Positions 1 through 8,996 of a stretch of 64,000 bases of DNA are shown in pieces. Location: NCBI GenBank assembly GCA_965215195.1, contig CBDCDC010000002.1:4544001-4608000 (forward strand). The letters are read 5' to 3'. The position numbers and the translations under genes are program-made. This DNA comes from Candidatus Latescibacterota bacterium (GTDB taxonomy: Bacteria; Latescibacterota; UBA2968; UBA8231). The notes beneath the pieces were generated by a model. That model was not told the DNA's origin. It searched no databases and worked only from the letters and a program-made list of their open reading frames with translations. Every line of letters starts with the position of its first letter. Within the stretch, counting starts at the first letter, position 1.

Positions 1-588
1 ACGCGGGCCATTCGGGCGACCACCAGTAATTCGTTGTCACTTCTGCTTGCGTTCGGTCAAGCTGCTCATCAGGGGAAGGTTCATCAAATGGGGAAGGTTT
101 ACGGCAAGCAAGCACTGTTATTTCCGACAATTCTTGGATTACTACTTGGAAAACTCGGCTACAAGAAAGGAACCTATATGAAGAGTCCACCCTACTTGAT
201 CGGGCGACTGCTAAGTCTGGCCGATCAACTGCACGTGCAGTACTGCCATGAAGTGCGCAAGGGCCAAGTCCCGCCTCAACTGGTGGGCAATGCCCTCATG
301 ACAAGCGCGATGGAAACACCCGAAAAAGCACTCGCCTTGTTCTGGCAGCGTATCAAGCCGTATTACACTTGGGCGCAAACGATACAAGGCGGCGATGAAG
401 TACGGCTCGTCAAGTACTTCCTCGGCGAGATGGGTCGCGTATGCGCGTCACTTTCCAAGACGGATCTGCCGATCCGGTGTTCGGATACCGACAAGGTCGC
501 CATGTTGCTTGGATACCTCGCCCGTGCTGAAAAGGATAAATCCAACGACGATTCGTCGAATACCTCAAGCGAAGGAGAGCAAGAATGA
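1..588 (+). CDS. cas8c: Type I-C large subunit Cas8c-like, 5'-partial
   Basis: Frame is open from base 1; C-terminal PYLIGRLL...MLLGY pattern typical of Cas8c/Cas11c; stop overlaps the cas7 start (ATGA). Confidence 0.75.
   Translation, partial: TRAIRATTSNSLSLLLAFGQAAHQGKVHQMGKVYGKQALLFPTILGLLLGKLGYKKGTYMKSPPYLIGRLLSLADQLHVQYCHEVRKGQVPPQLVGNALMTSAMETPEKALALFWQRIKPYYTWAQTIQGGDEVRLVKYFLGEMGRVCASLSKTDLPIRCSDTDKVAMLLGYLARAEKDKSNDDSSNTSSEGEQE
178..588 (+). CDS. cas11: Putative Cas11c small subunit translated from an internal start in cas8c
   Basis: AAGAAAGGA Shine-Dalgarno just upstream of an in-frame ATG at 178 (MKSPPYLIGRLL...), 136 aa. Confidence 0.65.
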   Translation: MKSPPYLIGRLLSLADQLHVQYCHEVRKGQVPPQLVGNALMTSAMETPEKALALFWQRIKPYYTWAQTIQGGDEVRLVKYFLGEMGRVCASLSKTDLPIRCSDTDKVAMLLGYLARAEKDKSNDDSSNTSSEGEQE

Positions 589-1442
589 CTGTCGTTACTA
601 CCAACGACGTGAAACGATATACGGGACTTCTAATCATTGAAGTCGTCAATTCCAATCCCAACGGCGACCCGGATCGCGAGAGCGACCCGCGACAGCGGCC
701 CGATGGCCGAGGTGAAATTTCTCCTGTTTCGTTCAAACGCAAAGTGCGCGATTTGATCGAGGTGAAGGATGGAGTTGTCTGGCAAGCGATGCAAGCGGAA
801 ATGAACCTGAGCGACGATCAATTCGTGGTTCTTGAGTCGCGTGGACGAGACCGTAAGCAGATTGAACGCGAATTGAGAGACGGATCCTTTCAGGACAAGT
901 ACTGGGATGGGCGAGTATTCGGAAACACTTTCTTGGAGGAAGGAGCTGCTGACACAATCAAGACGGGTGTCGTCCAGTTTGGCCTTGGACTGAGCGTGGC
1001 CCCGATCGAAATCAGTCGCCACACCAACACAAACAAGGCCGGAGTGGAAGGAGACAAAGACCGCGGTATGGCACCAATGGGATATCGTTTTGTGCCACAT
1101 GGGGTCTATTGTATGCCATTCTTTGTGAATCCGTCCGTGGCTCACAAATCGGGTTGCACGCAGCGAGATATCGACTTGTTGTTCAAAATCATCCCACACG
1201 CCTACGCGCATACTCGGTCTCACGCCCGGCCGCTAGTCGATCTACGTCACGCTTGGGTGGTTGAGCATAAATCGGCACTGGGATCTTGCTCCGATTTCGC
1301 GATTATGGATGCTCTGACGCCAACCCGGAATGGAGATTCCAGCGAACCCTCGAATACCTGGGCCGATTACACCGTGCCGACAAAGTTACCAGACGAATTG
1401 GCCGTTCGTGTCGCGAAAGTTCAGGATTTGGTGGTGGAATGA
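585..1442 (+). CDS. cas7: Cas7 (Csd2-like) backbone subunit
   Basis: NSNPNGDPD..PR motif, VSFKRKVRD, YWDGRVFG. Confidence 0.9.
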   Translation: MTVVTTNDVKRYTGLLIIEVVNSNPNGDPDRESDPRQRPDGRGEISPVSFKRKVRDLIEVKDGVVWQAMQAEMNLSDDQFVVLESRGRDRKQIERELRDGSFQDKYWDGRVFGNTFLEEGAADTIKTGVVQFGLGLSVAPIEISRHTNTNKAGVEGDKDRGMAPMGYRFVPHGVYCMPFFVNPSVAHKSGCTQRDIDLLFKIIPHAYAHTRSHARPLVDLRHAWVVEHKSALGSCSDFAIMDALTPTRNGDSSEPSNTWADYTVPTKLPDELAVRVAKVQDLVVE

Positions 1443-3676
1443 TGTTGCTCGCACACAGTCCGCAACCAAAGAACGAAATTCCCGCTCAACTGTATGCCGA
1501 ACACATTGAGAACGTCATCGAGTCGGCGGTTCGCCATGCTGGTGAACTGAATACCTATGCGACCGACGGTCAATTGCTCAAGCAGGTCGTTCAGTTGTCA
1601 GCCGAATTTCACGACCTCGGCAAACTTGACCCGGCGAACCAAGCTATTCTTTCGGTAGGCGGCAATGGTCGTCTACCAGTGAATCATGTCGATGCAGGTG
1701 TCGCACATCTGCTGAAAGCTCCGCCGCAACTGGCCGCACTATTGGCCGCAATTCTCGTCTTTTCGCACCACCGAGGCTTGCCGGAGTTCAGCGAACATAC
1801 AACGCGAGAAGCCGGACAACCATTCCGCGATTTGGAGTCGGACGAATCTGGACGCATAACAAAAGATCGCACTGACAAACGGCTAGCGGAATACTTGCAT
1901 CTGCACCAATCGGTCGTCGCGAGCATAGGGCAGTCAACGCACTTGACCGAGCAATGCCGTAGCGATCGGTCCGTATTCCTCCGTTTGGCACTGTCTTGTC
2001 TGGTTGATGCCGATCACTTTGATACGGCGCGAAATTATGGACAAGCTTTTTCCGTTACAAGCCCAGAACTCGAGCCGGCCGCACGGCTCGAACTTTTGGA
2101 TCGCTACGTTACTGGATTATCCGAGGACAAAGAAGACGAGCGCACACGCCTGAGACAGGACGTTTATCGCGCTTGTCGCAATGCCGATCCGTTCAGTGAA
2201 TCATTGGTGGCCTGCGATTCTCCCGTTGGTTCCGGAAAGACAACGGCAATCATGGCGCACCTATTGAACGTAGCGGTTGCGCGGAAACTACGGCGAGTAT
2301 TTGTCATTCTACCGTACACTAATATCATCGACCAGTCGGTTCGAGTTTACCGAGATTCAATGGTAAAGCCTGACGAGGGCCCCAACCGAGTCGTCGCAGC
2401 CCACCATCACCGTGCGGAATTCGACAACCTTGCGACTCGACATCTGACTTACCTGTGGAACAACCCCGTCGTCGTTACAACTGCCGTTCAGTTTTTTGAA
2501 ACGCTCGTTGCCTGTCGAACTGGGGCACTGCGAAAGCTTCATCAAGTCGCTGGATCGGCGATCTTCATCGATGAAACTCACGCCGCGCTACCGGCACACT
2601 TGTGGCCTGTTGCATGGAAGTGGCTGCAAGAATTGAAGAACAACTGGGGCTGTTACTTCGTCGTTGGGTCGGGATCGCTGAGCCGCTTCTGGGAGTTGTC
2701 GGATTTCGTTGATCCGATTTCGAACGTACCTGATCTGGTGGATGTGCGTGTGCGGGCCGAGAGCCTGGATCGAGAGGCAACGCGCGTCACCTATCAATCG
2801 CATCCGGATCCCATGACTTTAACGACGTTGAAACCGTGGTTACTCCAACTGCCGGGTCCGCGACTGCTTATTGTGAACACCGTCCAATCGGCAGCGATCA
2901 TCGCACGCTATCTCGCCGACTGGGAGAATCGAGATGACTGGCAATCAAATCATCCTCAAGTCGAACACCTCTCAACTGCACTTACTCCGACTGACCGCGA
3001 GATTACTCTGAAGCGAGTCATTGGCCGACTCGCAAACAAAGAAGATCGAGATTGGACGCTCGTGGCTACTTCCTGCGTTGAAGCTGGGGTTGATTTTTCG
3101 TTTCGGACGGGCATCCGCGAACGCGCTTCCTTGAACAGCCTGTTGCAGATCGCTGGCCGAGTGAACCGTGAAAGTAAGTATGAGTCTGCCGACGTTTGGG
3201 ACATTCAATTGGTCCATGACTCGTGGCTTCGACCCCATCCGACATTTGAGCATTCATCCACCGTATTGGGAGAGCTATTCAATGAAAGAAGAGTTGGTGT
3301 GAGTTCCTGCACTGAGGCTCTGCGGCGTGAGATTCGCCGCTCGCGGCTGAAGAAAGATGAATTGCTTAAGGCTGAAAGGACTCAGAATTTTCCAAAGGTT
3401 GCCGAATTGTTCCGCGTCATTGACTCGCCTACACTAACAGCCGTCGTTGATGAGACGCTTAAGGATGCGATTGAATCAGGTCAACGAGTTCCAAACCAAG
3501 AGCTTCAAAATGGAAGCGTACAGATCTACACGTCACGCGCCGAAGATTGGGCGTTGCGCGAGTTCGATCACATGCCCGGACTATTCGCGTGGAAACTTAT
3601 GTACGATTCCTTCTTAGGATTCATGGCGGGAGTGCTTCCACTCGTCGATGGCGGCGCAAAGGGGTATATGGTGTGA
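1439..3676 (+). CDS. cas3: Cas3 HD nuclease-helicase
   Basis: HDLGK HD motif, LVDADHFDT, Walker A PVGSGKT, DETH box, QIAGRVNR; ATG at 1439 overlaps the cas7 stop. Confidence 0.93.
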   Translation: MMLLAHSPQPKNEIPAQLYAEHIENVIESAVRHAGELNTYATDGQLLKQVVQLSAEFHDLGKLDPANQAILSVGGNGRLPVNHVDAGVAHLLKAPPQLAALLAAILVFSHHRGLPEFSEHTTREAGQPFRDLESDESGRITKDRTDKRLAEYLHLHQSVVASIGQSTHLTEQCRSDRSVFLRLALSCLVDADHFDTARNYGQAFSVTSPELEPAARLELLDRYVTGLSEDKEDERTRLRQDVYRACRNADPFSESLVACDSPVGSGKTTAIMAHLLNVAVARKLRRVFVILPYTNIIDQSVRVYRDSMVKPDEGPNRVVAAHHHRAEFDNLATRHLTYLWNNPVVVTTAVQFFETLVACRTGALRKLHQVAGSAIFIDETHAALPAHLWPVAWKWLQELKNNWGCYFVVGSGSLSRFWELSDFVDPISNVPDLVDVRVRAESLDREATRVTYQSHPDPMTLTTLKPWLLQLPGPRLLIVNTVQSAAIIARYLADWENRDDWQSNHPQVEHLSTALTPTDREITLKRVIGRLANKEDRDWTLVATSCVEAGVDFSFRTGIRERASLNSLLQIAGRVNRESKYESADVWDIQLVHDSWLRPHPTFEHSSTVLGELFNERRVGVSSCTEALRREIRRSRLKKDELLKAERTQNFPKVAELFRVIDSPTLTAVVDETLKDAIESGQRVPNQELQNGSVQIYTSRAEDWALREFDHMPGLFAWKLMYDSFLGFMAGVLPLVDGGAKGYMV

Positions 3677-3729
3677 ACCGATACCGATCCCTACTTGATG
3701 TATTTTAAGAACAGTGAAGTGTCGATATT

Positions 3730-4359
3730 ATGAAATCACCCGATCCCCCTGACCCCATCCCTCTCTCGCTCCTCAATGACTTCCTCTATTGCCAGCGCCG
3801 GGCGGCGTTGAAAGCAGTTGAGGGGTGGCGCGGGACCAACGAGCACACCGTACTCGGCGATAGTGTCCACGAGCAGGCCGACGTTTCCGGCTACGAAACT
3901 GTCAGGGGCGTGACTTTGTTGCGTGCTTTACCTGTCTGGTCGGCTCGGCTTGGACTCAACGGTAAGTGCGACATCGTTGAGCAGCATCCCGACGGTTCGC
4001 TGGTCCCGGTTGAGTTCAAAAAGGGCAAACGCCGCAAATTCGACAACGACGACGCCCAGCTTTGTGCGCAAGCGTTGTGTCTCGAAGAAATGTTTGGGCG
4101 GGACATTCCCCGAGGAGCCATCTTCCACGCCAAGAGCAAACGCCGCCGCGAGGTGGAATTTACCGAGGAGTTGCGCCGCCTCACCAAACAGGCCATTGAA
4201 GCCATACACCGGCTGATCGAAGAGGAAGCAGTTCCACAAGCCGTCCATAAGCCTCAATGTTCCGAGTGCTCGCTTTTCGACCATTGCCTTCCCGAAATCA
4301 CCAGTGTTCCGCCCACGCTGACGCGGGCCTATCGGGCAGTATTCGATACCACCGACTAG
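3730..4359 (+). CDS. cas4: Cas4 RecB-like nuclease
   Basis: YCQRR, GKCDIVE, PVEFKKG, QLCAQALCLEE, C-terminal CxxCSLxxxC. Confidence 0.93.
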   Translation: MKSPDPPDPIPLSLLNDFLYCQRRAALKAVEGWRGTNEHTVLGDSVHEQADVSGYETVRGVTLLRALPVWSARLGLNGKCDIVEQHPDGSLVPVEFKKGKRRKFDNDDAQLCAQALCLEEMFGRDIPRGAIFHAKSKRRREVEFTEELRRLTKQAIEAIHRLIEEEAVPQAVHKPQCSECSLFDHCLPEITSVPPTLTRAYRAVFDTTD

Positions 4360-4387
4360 AGCCGCCCGGCTCTCCGTGCCGAGCGAA

Positions 4388-4425
4388 GCCTCGCCTTGAT
4401 TCGGTAAGGGAGAACAGATTGCAAC
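4388..4425 (+). repeat. Degenerate solitary CRISPR repeat overlapping the cas1 RBS and start
   Basis: GCCTCGCCTTGATTCGGTAAGGGAGAACAGATTGCAAC matches the array repeat at 30/37 positions plus a 1-nt insertion. Confidence 0.8.
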
Positions 4426-5474
4426 AAAATACTCTTTACCTGACGACGCCGGGCACCGTAGTACACAGGGACCATCTGACGCTGCGGGTTGAGATCGAAA
4501 AGCAAACCCGTCTGACTGTGCCCATTCACCATTTGGAAAGCATTTGCGCGTTTGGGCAGGTCGTGGTTACGCCTCCGGCCATGGCCTTGTGCTGGGACCA
4601 TCAGGTGGCGGTGCATTACCACACCGAGAACGGCTATCTGCTGGCGCAAGTCTTGGGAAGCGGAGACACCCGCTACTTGCTGCGCCGGGCGCAGTATGCC
4701 GCGGCTGACAGCCCGCAGGAGGCATCGCGCATTGCCCGGCAATTCGTCGCTGGAAAGCTGCAAAACGCACGCTCCAATCTCTTGCGGGCCGGCCGGGAAG
4801 CTGAGGATGATGCAGATCGCACGGCCTTGGCGGACGTGGCTGACGAACTGGCTCAACTGATCCGCCAACTCGGCGATGCCCCACCTGTTGCTCCAGACTG
4901 CGGGCTTCGGGAGGCACTTGACCCGATCAGGGGCTTAGAGGGGATGGGTGCCAAGGCGTATTTCTCAGTGTTCCAATATATGCTCAAGCAACAGCGAGAG
5001 GATTTCAGGTTCGTAACCCGCTCGCGGCGTCCGCCTCGGGATCGGATAAACTGCCTACTTTCTTTTATATATGCTCTGGTCCGCCACGATTGTTTGGCTG
5101 CGCTGACGACCACTGGGTTGGACGCTTATGTCGGTTGGCTTCATGCAACGCGGGCGGGAAGGCCGGCTTGCGCCTTGGATCTAATGGAAGAGTTTCGGCC
5201 CTGTTTGGCAGAGCGGCTGGCGTTGACCCTGATCAATCGACGGCAGATCGAGTCCAAACACTTTCGCGAGCGGGAGGGCGGTGCCGTAGAATTTACCGAG
5301 CGAGGCAGGAAAGAGGTCATCCAAGCTTGGCAACGGCGCAAGCAAACAGAAGTAAAACACGCCCTGTTCAAGCAAAATATCCTTTTGGGGCAAGTTTTCA
5401 GCATTCAGGCCAAGTTGTTGGCTCGCAAGCTCCGCGGCGATGTCCCTGACTATATCCCCTTCATTCCTAAATAA
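4419..5474 (+). CDS. cas1: Cas1 (type I-C)
   Basis: QQNTLYLTTPG N-terminus, RGLEG, RRPPRDRINCLLSF, LDLMEEFR; probable TTG start after AAGGGAG. Confidence 0.92.
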   Translation: MQQNTLYLTTPGTVVHRDHLTLRVEIEKQTRLTVPIHHLESICAFGQVVVTPPAMALCWDHQVAVHYHTENGYLLAQVLGSGDTRYLLRRAQYAAADSPQEASRIARQFVAGKLQNARSNLLRAGREAEDDADRTALADVADELAQLIRQLGDAPPVAPDCGLREALDPIRGLEGMGAKAYFSVFQYMLKQQREDFRFVTRSRRPPRDRINCLLSFIYALVRHDCLAALTTTGLDAYVGWLHATRAGRPACALDLMEEFRPCLAERLALTLINRRQIESKHFREREGGAVEFTERGRKEVIQAWQRRKQTEVKHALFKQNILLGQVFSIQAKLLARKLRGDVPDYIPFIPK

Positions 5475-5764
5475 TGTTTATCCTGATCGCGTACGACGTT
5501 TCCACGACCGACCGTGCTGGGCAACGGCGGCTGCGCCAAGTGGCAAGAGCCTGTAAGGATTACGGCGTCCGAGTGCAGAAATCTCTTTTTGAATGCCAGT
5601 TGGGAAAAACTGAATGGGCGGCTCTCAGGAGTCGTCTGCTGAAAGAAATTGATCCTAAACAGGATTCGCTCAGATTTTATCATCTGGACGAAGACGCTAG
5701 GGATAAGACGGAGCATCACGGACTCGGTGAACCCGTGGACTTGAATGAACCACTGGTCTTATAG
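5474..5764 (+). CDS. cas2: Cas2
   Basis: ILIAYDV, RVQKSLFEC, DSLRFY. Confidence 0.95.
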   Translation: MFILIAYDVSTTDRAGQRRLRQVARACKDYGVRVQKSLFECQLGKTEWAALRSRLLKEIDPKQDSLRFYHLDEDARDKTEHHGLGEPVDLNEPLVL

Positions 5765-5944
5765 CGTGCGCGAAAGTGGAGTGACGGCGTTTTGCGCTTG
5801 CTTTCGCGCTGTTAGTAACTTTATGGCTAACAATAAGTTACAGCGAGGAATATGCTCTCGCTTTGGTAGTAGGATGCCTGAGAAAGGAGGTTCGCGCATC
5901 CACTTGTGTAACCTGTTGGTATTCCGCTGGTTACAGCAACCAGC
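5765..5944 (+). promoter_or_regulatory. CRISPR leader
   Basis: Non-coding, lower-GC segment between cas2 and the first repeat; the degenerate repeat is at the opposite end of the array. Confidence 0.75.
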
Positions 5945-8900
5945 GTCTCCCCTTGCTTCGGTGAGGGGAGCGGATTGAAACCACGACCTGGGCGCGCGCC
6001 AGCGGACCGGCCTGGGGTCTCCCCTTGCTTCGGTGAGGGGAGCGGATTGAAACGCATTGTCACGTGTTCGTCAGATTGTAGCACCCGGTCTCCCCTTGCT
6101 TCGGTGAGGGGAGCGGATTGAAACATTCGTCGTCCACCGGCTGGCCCCGAAAAACCTGGTCTCCCCTTGCTTCGGTGAGGGGAGCGGATTGAAACGCCGT
6201 CGGAGGAGCCGGCCTGCTCAAAAGCGACCGGTCTCCCCTTGCTTCGGTGAGGGGAGCGGATTGAAACTCGGGATCCTATTTCGATTTGTGGCACCAACAG
6301 GGGTCTCCCCTTGCTTCGGTGAGGGGAGCGGATTGAAACACGGCCGAGGACACGACGACGACCCAGACCTACACGTCTCCCCTTGCTTCGGTGAGGGGAG
6401 CGGATTGAAACAAAAATGGAAGCATCGATAGAGGCCTCGGCGGGGGTCTCCCCTTGCTTCGGTGAGGGGAGCGGATTGAAACCTCTGATTTTTCTGTTTG
6501 ACTGCTCTGCGCTTTCTGTCTCCCCTTGCTTCGGTGAGGGGAGCGGATTGAAACCTCGACAATCTCCTGCCTAGCGGCGTTGCCTTCCGTCTCCCCTTGC
6601 TTCGGTGAGGGGAGCGGATTGAAACTTTTTAGCCCAAGCGGGTTCTCAGCCGCAGCCGCGTCTCCCCTTGCTTCGGTGAGGGGAGCGGATTGAAACAAGC
6701 AGAAGTCGAAGCGAAGATTGGGAAGTGAACAAGTCTCCCCTTGCTTCGGTGAGGGGAGCGGATTGAAACGCGCACGACGACCGAGATCGCCACGGACTCG
6801 TATGGGTCTCCCCTTGCTTCGGTGAGGGGAGCGGATTGAAACAGCGGTGCCGCGGGGGGCAAGCCGTGCAGCTGGCGTCTCCCCTTGCTTCGGTGAGGGG
6901 AGCGGATTGAAACTACATCTAGAAGACAGCCGCATCGGGTGGTCGCCGTCTCCCCTTGCTTCGGTGAGGGGAGCGGATTGAAACAGCATCCCGCCGGGGA
7001 CCCAGAACCCTATCCAGCGTCTCCCCTTGCTTCGGTGAGGGGAGCGGATTGAAACAAGCGGTAGCTGGTCCCTGCAAGGCAGGGGTGAGGGTCTCCCCTT
7101 GCTTCGGTGAGGGGAGCGGATTGAAACTTTGACCCGGCGACGGCCGACCAGTCGGCGTTCCGTCTCCCCTTGCTTCGGTGAGGGGAGCGGATTGAAACAT
7201 AAAAATCGGGACCGGCGGATGTCGGAACCTCCAGTCTCCCCTTGCTTCGGTGAGGGGAGCGGATTGAAACGATGCTACCCCTACCTATAATGATCTTGGC
7301 CATGGTCTCCCCTTGCTTCGGTGAGGGGAGCGGATTGAAACTTGGCCGAGGCGTACCTCCACAACACGGCTCGATGTCTCCCCTTGCTTCGGTGAGGGGA
7401 GCGGATTGAAACACTATAACGTACGAAATTGAGGGGCTCCCCGACTGGCGTCTCCCCTTGCTTCGGTGAGGGGAGCGGATTGAAACTCATTCGCCTATCT
7501 CCCTCGCGTTTGAAAATGAAGTCTCCCCTTGCTTCGGTGAGGGGAGCGGATTGAAACATGTAGCGCGTTGCGTCCGTGCCCGTATCCGCTTCGTCTCCCC
7601 TTGCTTCGGTGAGGGGAGCGGATTGAAACGCATCGATATTGGTGCCCGAATTTGTTGCACACATGTCTCCCCTTGCTTCGGTGAGGGGAGCGGATTGAAA
7701 CTCATTCGCCTATCTCCCTCGCGTTGAAAATGAAATGTCTCCCCTTGCTTCGGTGAGGGGAGCGGATTGAAACCCGGACCCGGAGGCGGCCACCGTCCTC
7801 TCGTGGCTGTCTCCCCTTGCTTCGGTGAGGGGAGCGGATTGAAACGCGTACAGCACGGAGGGAAAGCCGGACTGGCTGAGTCTCCCCTTGCTTCGGTGAG
7901 GGGAGCGGATTGAAACCACTACTGTTTCCTTCCGAAGGGAGAGTAACGCCAAAGTCTCCCCTTGCTTCGGTGAGGGGAGCGGATTGAAACGTATAATTGT
8001 ATCTTCTAACAAGACGAGGTCGAGGGTCTCCCCTTGCTTCGGTGAGGGGAGCGGATTGAAACCTGCCGTCTGCTGCGTCTTTGTCCTAATCTGACCTGTC
8101 TCCCCTTGCTTCGGTGAGGGGAGCGGATTGAAACAGTATTTCGTGCGCTTGCCCACCGAGCTCGCGTCGTCTCCCCTTGCTTCGGTGAGGGGAGCGGATT
8201 GAAACGGGCATCCCCTTGGATACCTACCGAGCGGCCCCCGGTCTCCCCTTGCTTCGGTGAGGGGAGCGGATTGAAACAAAGGTTGCCCATTCCAGTGCTC
8301 CACCGAATACTCTGTCTCCCCTTGCTTCGGTGAGGGGAGCGGATTGAAACTGCTGCTCAAATGTATAGGAAAAATCGGCGACTATGTCTCCCCTTGCTTC
8401 GGTGAGGGGAGCGGATTGAAACTGCGAGAAAGATATACTCGCAGATCGTGCGCGTTGTCTCCCCTTGCTTCGGTGAGGGGAGCGGATTGAAACTGCGATT
8501 CATCAGGCGCGCGAGGGCCGAGTCGTAGGTCTCCCCTTGCTTCGGTGAGGGGAGCGGATTGAAACAGTTATCTACTTGGATAGCTGGCCAATTGCCGGGA
8601 TGTCTCCCCTTGCTTCGGTGAGGGGAGCGGATTGAAACATTGGCAAGGCGCAAATCTGCATTGGGATGCCGGCCGTCTCCCCTTGCTTCGGTGAGGGGAG
8701 CGGATTGAAACACGACGGACAACACGGTTCAAAAGGTCGCTCAGTCTCCCCTTGCTTCGGTGAGGGGAGCGGATTGAAACGTCGTTGGAGAGATTGCGAA
8801 AATTGCGGCTGTGCGTCTCCCCTTGCTTCGGTGAGGGGAGCGGATTGAAACGTCCAGCCGTCCGATTTTTCTTTGTCTCTCTTGGAGGTCTCCCCTTGCT

Positions 8901-8996
8901 TCGGTGAGGGGAGCGGATTGAAACCACTACTGTCAGCCTAACGAGTGAGAGCATATCTTGTCTCCCCTTGCTTCGGCGAGGGGAGTGGATTGAAAC
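5945..8996 (+). CRISPR. CRISPR array, 43 repeats of 37 bp (GTCTCCCCTTGCTTCGGTGAGGGGAGCGGATTGAAAC) and 42 spacers of about 32-37 bp
   Basis: Counted by hand; hairpin CTCCCCTTGC-TTCG-GTGAGGGGAG and ATTGAAAC 3' end; last repeat (8960-8996) carries 2 substitutions. Confidence 0.98.

Follow-up and report, generated by a model that had tools for sequence, protein, structure and literature searches.

Where solitary copies of CRISPR repeats occur within cas loci, the role mainly known for them is that of guides for promoter repression. A close precedent is a 2023 survey, which presents repeat-derived sequences that lie outside the array but inside the cas locus, are partly degraded and are conserved in related loci, and which infers that such ectopic copies arise and vanish dynamically (10.1101/2023.03.03.530964). 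In its available text, this survey focuses on long intergenic stretches close to cas3, cas8 and cas6, as well as on mini-arrays with promoter-matching spacers (10.1101/2023.03.03.530964). The element described here, found in a 64,000-nt stretch of DNA (the window), is likewise a partly degraded repeat in a cas locus. Unlike the surveyed cases, it consists of one unit, sits in a gap of 59 nt and appears to supply the Shine-Dalgarno sequence (SD) and start codon of cas1. The main text of the survey makes no mention of I-C, cas4, translation or Shine, and its supplementary tables may list such sites (10.1101/2023.03.03.530964). Our full-text literature searches, whose scope ended short of those tables, found no description of a repeat recycled as the ribosome-binding site or start of cas1.

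Two further kinds of RNA element invite comparison. The degenerated mini-CRISPRs CreR and CreA also carry a degenerate repeat in a cas locus, and a link between Cas levels and cas expression has been proposed for them; CreR, as outlined there, is a guide that acts on promoter DNA and requires a psi-spacer with a PAM-flanked target (10.1101/2023.03.10.532045). In contrast, we found no target, second psi-repeat or promoter of its own for the window element. The phage RNA anti-CRISPRs termed Racrs resemble it in that each is one spacerless repeat unit with the potential to engage Cas proteins, but they are described as phage-encoded non-coding RNAs (PMC10651486). The window element is chromosomal and sits in the cas operon, where it overlaps a start codon. 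A degenerate terminal array repeat is a mutated copy that has dropped out of homogenisation with the array. The last repeat in the window has two mismatches, and the element resembles terminal repeats in this respect; it differs from them in lying 1.5 kb from the array, on the upstream side of the leader, with cas1 and cas2 in between.

The genes of the system are ordered cas5-cas8-cas7-cas3-cas4-cas1-cas2, with cas3 placed after cas7; cas5 and cas8 are upstream of cas7, and cas8 extends into the window as far as position 588 (Table 1). The initial annotation treated the locus as type I-C. Cas1 supports this label, scoring 419 bits against a cut-off of 385 for the Cas1c model, whereas Cas5 (43 bits), Cas8 (33 bits) and Cas7 (127 bits) all fall below the cut-offs of the I-C models and the gene order is atypical. 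The system is probably a divergent I-C variant. All array repeats but the last are identical (42 of 43), and they end in the handle ATTGAAAC.

Table 1. Features of the adaptation module and its surroundings, in window coordinates.
Feature	Position	Strand	Remarks
cas7 and cas3	585-3676	+	cas7 585-1442; cas3 1286-3676
cas4	3730-4359	+	TIGR00372 Cas4, 130.9 bits
Spacer between cas4 stop and element, 28 nt	4360-4387	+	core CCGGCTCTCCGTGCCGAGCGAAG, identical in the nearest relative (L032)
Degenerate solitary CRISPR repeat (psi-repeat)	4388-4425	+	30/37 identity to array repeat, with a 2-nt insertion besides
5' stem arm CTCGCCTTGA	4390-4399	+	C>G gives a bulge; C>A at the loop-proximal pair
TTCG loop	4400-4403	+	unaltered
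3' stem arm GTAAGGGAG	4404-4412	+	contains Shine-Dalgarno AAGGGAG, 4406-4412
AA insertion, 2 nt	4413-4414	+	between stem base and handle, where Cas5c would cut (cmsearch alignment; rule as described in the available text of PMC8524198)
Handle-like 11 nt CAGATTGCAAC	4415-4425	+	CGGATTGAAAC in array repeat
cas1	4419-5474	+	351 aa; TTG start within handle; TIGR03640 Cas1c, 419.4 bits, alignment from residue 2
cas2	5474-5764	+	TIGR01573, 60.7 bits
Leader	5765-5944	+	conserved in L032 and L033
CRISPR array	5945-8996	+	43 repeats of 37 nt

The element reads GCCTCGCCTTGATTCGGTAAGGGAGAACAGATTGCAAC, with the 3' end ATTGCAAC, and has the same sense orientation as the array, which begins 1520 nt away. 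In the cmsearch alignment, it matches the array repeat at 30 of 37 positions; six bases are substituted, one G is missing and 2 nt are inserted. The minimum edit distance between the two is 8. The substitution G19>A converts the T10-G19 pair to T10-A19. These results agree with the initial annotation, which had noted a 30/37 match 1.5 kb from the array, an intact TTCG loop, a G>A change turning a U-G pair into U-A, the SD AAGGGAG in the 3' arm and a TTG in the handle.

To assess the significance of the match, the whole 6,134,125-bp genome was searched on both strands by a Sellers scan that scored edit distance to the array repeat. Outside the array, only three sites genome-wide lay within a distance of 9, namely the element and two others on contig C1, and no second repeat-like unit was found near the element at a distance of 10 or less. 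A covariance model of 24 array-repeat variants also placed the element as its top match in window 1-5940, with 10 bits and an E-value of 0.1. As this model was too tightly trained, we chose edit distance and an empirical null as the detector. Rfam, searched at its E-value threshold over 3600-6200, gave no match at the element, and the array repeats themselves gave only a sub-threshold CRISPR-DR9. A blastn-short search of the repeat against the genome was uninformative, returning many 9-14 nt seeds.

The TTG at 4419-4421, which lies inside the ATTGAAAC-like handle, is the only plausible start of cas1. The Cas1c model TIGR03640 aligns from residue 2 of the open reading frame beginning there, and there is no in-frame ATG, GTG or TTG between the cas4 stop codon (4357-4359) and 4419. 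The cas4 stop is 59 nt upstream of cas1, and therefore the two genes do not overlap. Both nearest relatives also start cas1 with a TTG, within GATTGAAAC. At the cas4|cas1 junction, we found nothing resembling a promoter or a terminator.

The distance between the SD and the start codon was altered relative to the native repeat. AAGGGAG is separated from TTG by 6 nt in the window and by 4 nt in the native repeat, and among the elements with a TTG start, the SD lies 5-6 nt upstream in 9 of 10. These are the window element, that of L033 and the cas2 elements of L034, L039, L040, L044, L045, L047 and L048. The better spacing in the cas2 elements arises because a G>A change creates AGGAG, which breaks one stem pair. 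We read these changes as probable adaptation towards a better initiation region. The proposal of the initial annotation that the degenerate repeat forms the translation initiation region of cas1 is thus upheld by the SD, the TTG, the Cas1c alignment and the relatives, and we infer that ribosomes use AAGGGAG and the TTG at 4419.

Similar elements recur at the junctions of adaptation genes in related loci. At an edit distance of 10 or less, they were found between cas4 and cas1 in 10 of 34 loci (two more at a distance of 12), before cas4 at the cas7|cas4 junction in 5 of 34, and before cas2 at the cas1|cas2 junction in 8 of 32, compared with 0 of 790 null windows. L042 and L056 carry elements before all three adaptation genes, and L058 has two together with a remnant before cas2. 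The handles either adjoin an ATG or GTG or hold a TTG start, the exception being the cas2 copy of L095, which lies 12 nt before the ATG. Antisense matches outside the arrays of the relatives, at a distance of 11 or less, were absent apart from one that is the palindromic shadow of a sense element. Repeat-like elements before cas4 and before cas2 are also present in a second, canonical I-C lineage.

Several copies are nearly intact and match the array of their own locus, namely those at the cas4|cas1 junctions of L033 and L056 (distance 4) and at the cas1|cas2 junction of L095 (distance 3). The L033 junction consists of ~30 nt of leader-like sequence followed by a full repeat and a half repeat. 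An initiation-region role does not cover every copy, as the L095 repeat provides no obvious SD for cas2. At cas7|cas4 junctions, the inserts come with a duplicated stretch of the gene overlap, 8-13 nt in length. Integration by Cas1-Cas2 is expected to give repeat-length duplications, and ectopic integration was set aside as the source of these inserts because theirs are only 8-13 nt long.

We then compared 27 elements with respect to the hairpin, which the initial annotation had supposed to be kept as a regulatory target. The comparisons did not bear this out, as they showed no excess of pairing, compensatory change or stability. Stem pairs were kept in 174 of 270 cases versus 183.4 expected; the window copy, which has one bulge, keeps 7 of its 10 pairs versus 7.1 expected. 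Double changes in the stems restored a pair three times and broke one 16 times. The predicted hairpin energy was −7.7 kcal/mol for the element versus −17.6 kcal/mol for the array repeat. When folding energies were ranked against randomly mutated repeats, none of the 27 elements fell below the 10th percentile (median percentile 0.78), and 21 folded worse than the median mutated repeat. The 94-nt junction RNA folded no better than its shuffles (z −0.09), and its minimum-energy fold differs from the repeat hairpin (ensemble frequency 0.008).

Conservation was uneven along the element. At the cas4|cas1 junction, pairwise identity was 0.57 in the 5' arm, 0.64 in the loop, 0.59 in the 3' arm and 0.75 in the handle, with 0.58 at four-fold sites of cas1; the corresponding values at the cas1|cas2 junction were 0.45, 0.43, 0.58 and 0.73, with 0.50 at four-fold sites. 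Across the 27 elements, the handle was the best-conserved part, with 0.10-0.13 changes per site versus 0.24-0.29 in the arms; as the elements were picked by their similarity to repeats, such estimates of conservation are biased upwards. G26, the base immediately before the cut site, was altered in 14 of the 27. By these sequence comparisons, the stem shows no excess conservation across relatives. An initiation region would explain only loosely why the handle is conserved above four-fold sites, and binding of Cas5 or Cascade would fit this as well. Covariation of the elements with the repeat of their own locus, which the initial annotation had proposed as a check, held only in part. The own repeat was closer than random repeats overall (p 0.007, among relatives that are not independent) and was the best match for 6 of 19 elements, but for 9 of the 19 it came 12th or lower among the 24 variants.

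These observations are probably best explained if 4388-4425 is an old, decaying solitary repeat in sense orientation that has been taken over as the cas1 translation initiation region. What was once the purine-rich 3' arm of the hairpin (AAGGGAG) would serve as the SD and the TTG in the former ATTGAAAC handle as the start codon, with the 2-nt insertion setting the gap between them at 6 nt. The TTG start may have been derived by a short deletion from a state in which an ATG directly followed the handle. The weak residual hairpin might damp cas1 translation slightly, although nothing indicates selection for such damping. The same process is likely to have operated before cas4 and cas2 in related loci, and copies may occasionally have been refreshed from the array, probably by gene conversion.

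A more active role was proposed by the initial annotation, in which the element is a working Cas5/Cascade site on the cas4-cas1 mRNA and represses adaptation post-transcriptionally, either by a cut at the stem base that splits the SD from the TTG or by Cascade covering the start. We consider this unlikely. The geometry fits, since cleavage after 4412 would separate an upstream SD from a downstream TTG, and the handle exceeds four-fold sites in identity (0.73-0.75 vs 0.50-0.58); the presence in L042 and L056 of elements before each of the three adaptation genes, and of near-intact copies matching their own array in some loci, also points this way. However, a site under selection for cleavage is hard to reconcile with stems that drift at about the rate of four-fold sites without excess pairing, compensatory change or stability, with the frequent loss of G26, and with own repeats that rank 12th or worse for nearly half of the elements compared. 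Cas5c substrates are reported to have a handle of 11 nt that follows the stem base without a gap and a conserved trinucleotide after the cut (PMC8524198, in its available text). The window element departs from this rule in both respects, with AA at 4413-4414 and CGG>CAG. The window copy also has a bulge, and its 2-nt insertion at the cut site and CGG>CAG change fall in the region on which recognition by BhaCas5c reportedly focuses; SmuCas5c is reported to tolerate changes around the cut site (both PMC8524198, in its available text). The element is presumably no longer a good Cas5 substrate. The Cas5 of the window is itself divergent: in phmmer alignments, Cys and Ala stand opposite the His and Lys of solved Cas5c/Cas5d chains, in segments that appear to be those of the catalytic residues. 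We give this last point little weight, because these positions vary even among related loci with canonical gene order. Overall, the comparative tests weaken the regulatory idea but do not refute it. A broader and quite doubtful extension is that repeat copies before the starts of cas4, cas1 and cas2 make each adaptation gene act as a 'spacer' in an extended array. Fresh copies would be cut or occupied at the handle by Cas5 or Cascade, which would tie the synthesis of adaptation proteins to free effector subunits; copies would escape by mutation and be renewed from the array by gene conversion, and the window copy would represent a late, largely escaped stage.

The residual hairpin could be an attenuator independent of Cas proteins, in which the former 5' arm pairs with the SD and Cas1 synthesis stays low. 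The isolated element does fold into the −7.7 kcal/mol hairpin with AAGGGAG fully paired, but other pairings form the minimum-energy fold in the 94-nt context (frequency 0.008, z −0.09), the stems are not conserved across relatives and changes tend to weaken the hairpin (21 of 27 elements), which leaves this idea rather improbable. It is very unlikely that the element chiefly marks or serves exchange with array repeats, by recombination or gene conversion that swaps cas1-cas2-array modules, with its translational role incidental: where the window was compared with L032, L033 and L038, the breakpoints fell within cas4 or at the cas4 start, not at the cas4|cas1 junction. Such exchange would be in line with an adaptation module that is 85-97% identical in DNA (four pairwise comparisons) between loci with very different effector modules (Cas7 ~28% identical), with the composite junction of L033 and with the copies that appear refreshed from the array. 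The near-neutral evolution of the stem would also suit a remnant without any role, with translation of cas1 beginning at a different start or coupled to that of cas4. We regard this as highly improbable, given the lack of an alternative in-frame start after the cas4 stop, the Cas1 alignment from residue 2, the 59 nt without gene overlap and an SD whose presence and spacing are kept or improved in relatives. Finally, the initial annotation had raised the possibility that the element and the preceding 36 nt yield a crRNA-like guide of the CreR/CreA type, which would take Cascade to a cas promoter beside a TTC PAM. The available text of two studies reports such mini-arrays in several type I subtypes and mentions I-C (10.1101/2023.03.10.532045; 10.1101/2023.03.03.530964). 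This possibility deserves almost no credence here. The element is a single repeat-like unit with no second one nearby at a distance of 10 or less, and no promoter-like site was found. The best non-self match of the putative spacer (4352-4387) in the 11.4-kb cas locus was 21/36 with no adjacent TTC, which equals the mean best match of shuffled spacers (21.0, maximum 25).

If the co-option of a decaying repeat as the cas1 initiation region is the right reading, this locus offers a concrete case in which non-coding DNA of an immune system was exapted for gene expression. It also carries a warning for annotation, in that the start codons of cas1 and cas2 may be TTGs within repeat-like sequence. 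The near-intact copies in L033, L056 and L095 are the best places to ask whether Cas5 ever processes cas mRNAs. The adaptation module was found in genomes labelled as many different phyla.

The degenerate copy of the CRISPR repeat in front of cas1 reads GCCTCGCCTTGATTCGGTAAGGGAGAACAGATTGCAAC. It is identical to the array repeat at 30 of 37 positions, lacks one G and carries a 2-nt insertion (minimum edit distance 8). Its details had been read correctly in the initial annotation: the loop (TTCG), a stem pair converted from T-G to T-A by a G>A change, the 3' end ATTGCAAC, the AAGGGAG in the 3' arm of the stem (4406-4412) and the TTG at 4419. When the entire genome (6.13 Mb) was searched on both strands, only three sites outside the array lay within an edit distance of 9 of the repeat, namely this element and two sites on contig C1, which excludes a chance likeness. 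No in-frame ATG, GTG or TTG occurs between the cas4 stop and 4419, the Cas1c model alignment begins at residue 2 of the open reading frame starting with this TTG, and the same TTG is the cas1 start in the nearest relatives. TTG 4419 is the only credible start of cas1.

Coordinates of the cas locus, of repeat-like elements in related loci and of further sites in the genome (plain numbers, window positions; L, stretches of this or related genomes; C1 and C2, contigs of the window's genome)
Feature	Position	Remark
cas operon		cas5, cas8, cas7, cas3, cas4, cas1, cas2, with upstream genome added; the window begins inside it
Cas5 of the window system	L001:2786-3454	window -2214..-1546
cas4	3730-4359	
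Element before cas1	4388-4425	
cas1	4419-5474	
cas2	5474-5764	
Leader		180 nt, directly after cas2
CRISPR array	5945-8996	43 repeats of 37 nt
cas7-cas4 inserts	L033:5203-5238, L036:5215-5250, L042:5190-5225, L056:5266-5302, L058:5248-5283	repeat-like
cas4-cas1 junction of L033	L033:5896-6000	
cas1-cas2 elements of L034, L039, L040, L044, L045, L047, L048	about 7055-7117 (L048: 7253-7286)	AGGAG 6 nt before TTG
Repeat-like units of L088, L093	about 745-850	a pair around the cas4 start, 73 nt apart, with the second in the cas4 N-terminal coding region
Repeat behind cas1 of L095	L095:2526-2557	near-intact (distance 3), right behind the cas1 stop, 12 nt ahead of the cas2 ATG
Further cas1 homologues	C2, about 196474-200000 and 947481-948458	34-37% identical
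Repeat copy in RecA gene	C1:107465-107510 (L114:1465-1510)	edit distance 3
RecA gene	L114:393-1544	Pfam RecA, 440 bits
Solitary repeat copy	C1:552180-552216 (L115:680-716)	intergenic, edit distance 5, handle intact

The window Cas1 scored above the cut-off of its I-C model (TIGR03640, 419 bits vs 385); Cas5, Cas8 and Cas7 scored under the I-C cut-offs. Together with the placement of cas3 downstream of cas7, this indicates a divergent I-C variant, not a textbook system. Cas5 carries Cys and Ala at the His and Lys positions of the solved Cas5c/Cas5d chains (AIHWKP and GKH segments in phmmer alignments), and in related loci with canonical gene order Cas5 has K-Y in place of K-H. A second array adjoins the first cas1 homologue on C2; the matches listed there include a periodic series, at intervals of about 71-77 nt, to the 10 nt that end the repeat (a GATTGAAAC-type end).

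We then compared related loci. A Cas1 search of genome contigs yielded 53 loci, of which 33 (L032-L064) had a Cas1 76-96% identical to that of the window and an intact cas4-cas1 stretch; L082 was dropped as broken. The genomes of these 33 relatives are labelled as many phyla. In L032, L033, L036 and L038, the adaptation module (cas4 3' part, cas1, cas2 and leader; window 3730-5944) is 85-97% identical to that of the window at the DNA level. It is attached to either of two effector modules that differ strongly, one with the cas7-cas3-cas4 order of the window and one with the canonical cas3...cas7-cas4 order, whose Cas7 is only about 28% identical to that of the window. Each junction was scored by its smallest edit distance to any of the 24 distinct array-repeat variants from these loci; in a null set of 790 windows of 120 nt, drawn at random from these loci, the minimum was 11, reached once, and none scored 10 or less. 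A repeat-like element at distance 10 or less was detected between cas4 and cas1 in 10 of 34 loci (window, L032, L033, L038, L041, L042, L046, L056, L058, L063), with L036 and L039 at distance 12, before cas4 in 5 of 34, and between cas1 and cas2 in 8 of 32; at least one was present in 18 of 34 loci. The degenerate repeat at the cas1 start is thus confirmed, and it belongs to a wider occurrence than first noticed, before cas4 and cas2 as well.

All elements are in sense orientation. Their handle end, the part of the repeat 3' of the stem base, directly adjoins the next gene's ATG or GTG or stops a few nucleotides short of it (as many as 10 in L056 and L058); otherwise the TTG within ATTGAAAC serves as the start codon, for cas1 in the window, L032 and L033, and for cas2 (TTG AAA CTG/TTG ATC...) in seven loci. 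In loci lacking a cas1-cas2 element, the two genes overlap (TAATG) or are 4-5 nt apart (22 nt in L062). On the cas1 tree, the cas4-cas1 elements are concentrated in two clades, with L046 in addition, and weaker remnants were seen by eye in several other loci, indicating that the element is old in this module. In a second lineage (canonical I-C loci from the same phylum, whose Cas1 is about 41-48% identical to that of the window), none of the 13 loci with arrays had a cas4-cas1 element; four carry one or two repeat-like units before cas4. The relatives of L095 have decayed remnants at the same cas1-cas2 place.

The proposal that each element tracks the repeat of its own array held only in part. 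Of the elements at distance 10 or less, 19 belong to loci whose array is known. The locus's own repeat came first, or shared first place, among the 24 variants for six of them (window, L033, L038 and L056 at cas4-cas1, L056 before cas4, L042 before cas2), but ranked 12th or worse for nine; the permutation p was 0.007 among loci that are relatives and not independent. The near-intact copies of L033, L056 and L095 look refreshed from their arrays. The L033 junction, in effect a spacer-less mini-locus, consists of about 30 nt resembling the leader 3' end, a full repeat (distance 4) and a 17-nt half repeat with the cas1-start TTG; the leader-like sequence and the extra half repeat point to recombination with the array. 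In L032, L033, L058 and a copy on C1, the repeat is directly followed by part of a further handle (GATTGAAAC, or up to 17 nt). The cas7-cas4 inserts are flanked by a duplicated gene overlap of 8-13 nt (ATGAGTGA, ATGAGTAAAGCAA). Since cas7 and cas4 overlap by those 8 nt in insert-free loci, the compact state is ancestral and the repeat was inserted, in what looks like insertion with target duplication.

The initial annotation had proposed that Cas5 or Cascade cuts or binds the element on the cas1 mRNA and so represses adaptation post-transcriptionally. Whether the hairpin is conserved separates this model from a relic, and we examined 27 elements at distance 12 or less, excluding one distance-12 hit within the L045 cas4. 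Of 270 stem pairs, 174 remained standard, vs 183.4 expected for randomly placed changes (window copy, 7 of 10 vs 7.1), and pairs changed on both sides were restored in 3 cases and broken in 16. Compared with 400 random mutants of the repeat carrying the same edits, no element folded better than the 10th percentile, and 21 folded worse than the median. A 94-nt junction RNA folded no better than shuffles (z -0.09), and its best fold lacked the repeat hairpin. Pairwise identity at cas4-cas1 was 0.57, 0.64 and 0.59 for 5' arm, loop and 3' arm, and four-fold degenerate sites in the cas1 genes of these loci gave 0.58; the corresponding values at cas1-cas2 were 0.45, 0.43, 0.58 and 0.50. Only the handle was better conserved (0.75 and 0.73 at the two junctions); its last 8 nt showed 0.10 changes per site, vs 0.24-0.29 in the arms. 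This could reflect either an initiation region or Cas5 binding. G26, the base ahead of the cut site, was the most often changed (14 of 27 elements), and the window copy has its 2-nt insertion and a CGG>CAG change exactly at and after the cut site. PMC8524198 places recognition by BhaCas5c there and reports SmuCas5c as more tolerant. The comparative tests thus lend no support to repression by Cas5 or Cascade, and we consider such feedback improbable.

The spacing of the initiation signals bears marks of selection for translation. In the native repeat, the SD-like GGGGAG lies 4 nt from the TTG, vs 5-6 nt in nine of ten TTG-start elements, as read from the junction sequences. The gap is widened by the AA insertion in the window and is 5 nt in L033; in the seven cas2 elements, a G>A change makes AGGAG, sets the wider gap and breaks a stem pair. 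The exception is L032, with AAGGA 9 nt before its TTG. These changes suggest that the initiation region was improved at the expense of the hairpin. On balance, we favor the view that the element is a solitary repeat in decay which was co-opted to initiate cas1 translation; we infer that ribosomes would use the SD and TTG 4419 and that Cas5 would not cut there.

A CreR-type guide, which would target a promoter through the 36 nt before the element, is not supported: its best match in the 11.4-kb cas locus was 21/36, vs a mean best of 21.0 for shuffled spacers. This match had no adjoining TTC, the genome scan found no second psi-repeat, and there was no promoter-like site. We also considered a module-exchange site at cas4-cas1, but the breakpoints that separate the window from L032, L033 and L038 fall within cas4 or where cas4 begins rather than at the junction. 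Standalone repeat-like sequences are established as a general class by a 2023 survey (10.1101/2023.03.03.530964), whose main text, supplements aside, does not mention I-C, cas4 or translation; the CreR preprint (10.1101/2023.03.10.532045) notes promoter-targeting creA-like elements in I-C loci. Our full-text literature search returned no account of repeats as initiation regions of cas genes.

Of the two copies on C1, the solitary one precedes a signal peptidase I gene (Peptidase_S26, 159 bits) by 58 nt, and the 36 nt on its 3' side matched nothing elsewhere in the genome better than 25/36. The other, near-intact and followed by a second GATTGAAAC, is in frame within the final 26 codons of a RecA gene, where it lies just past the end of the RecA_C domain (residue 354) and forms the C-terminal tail.
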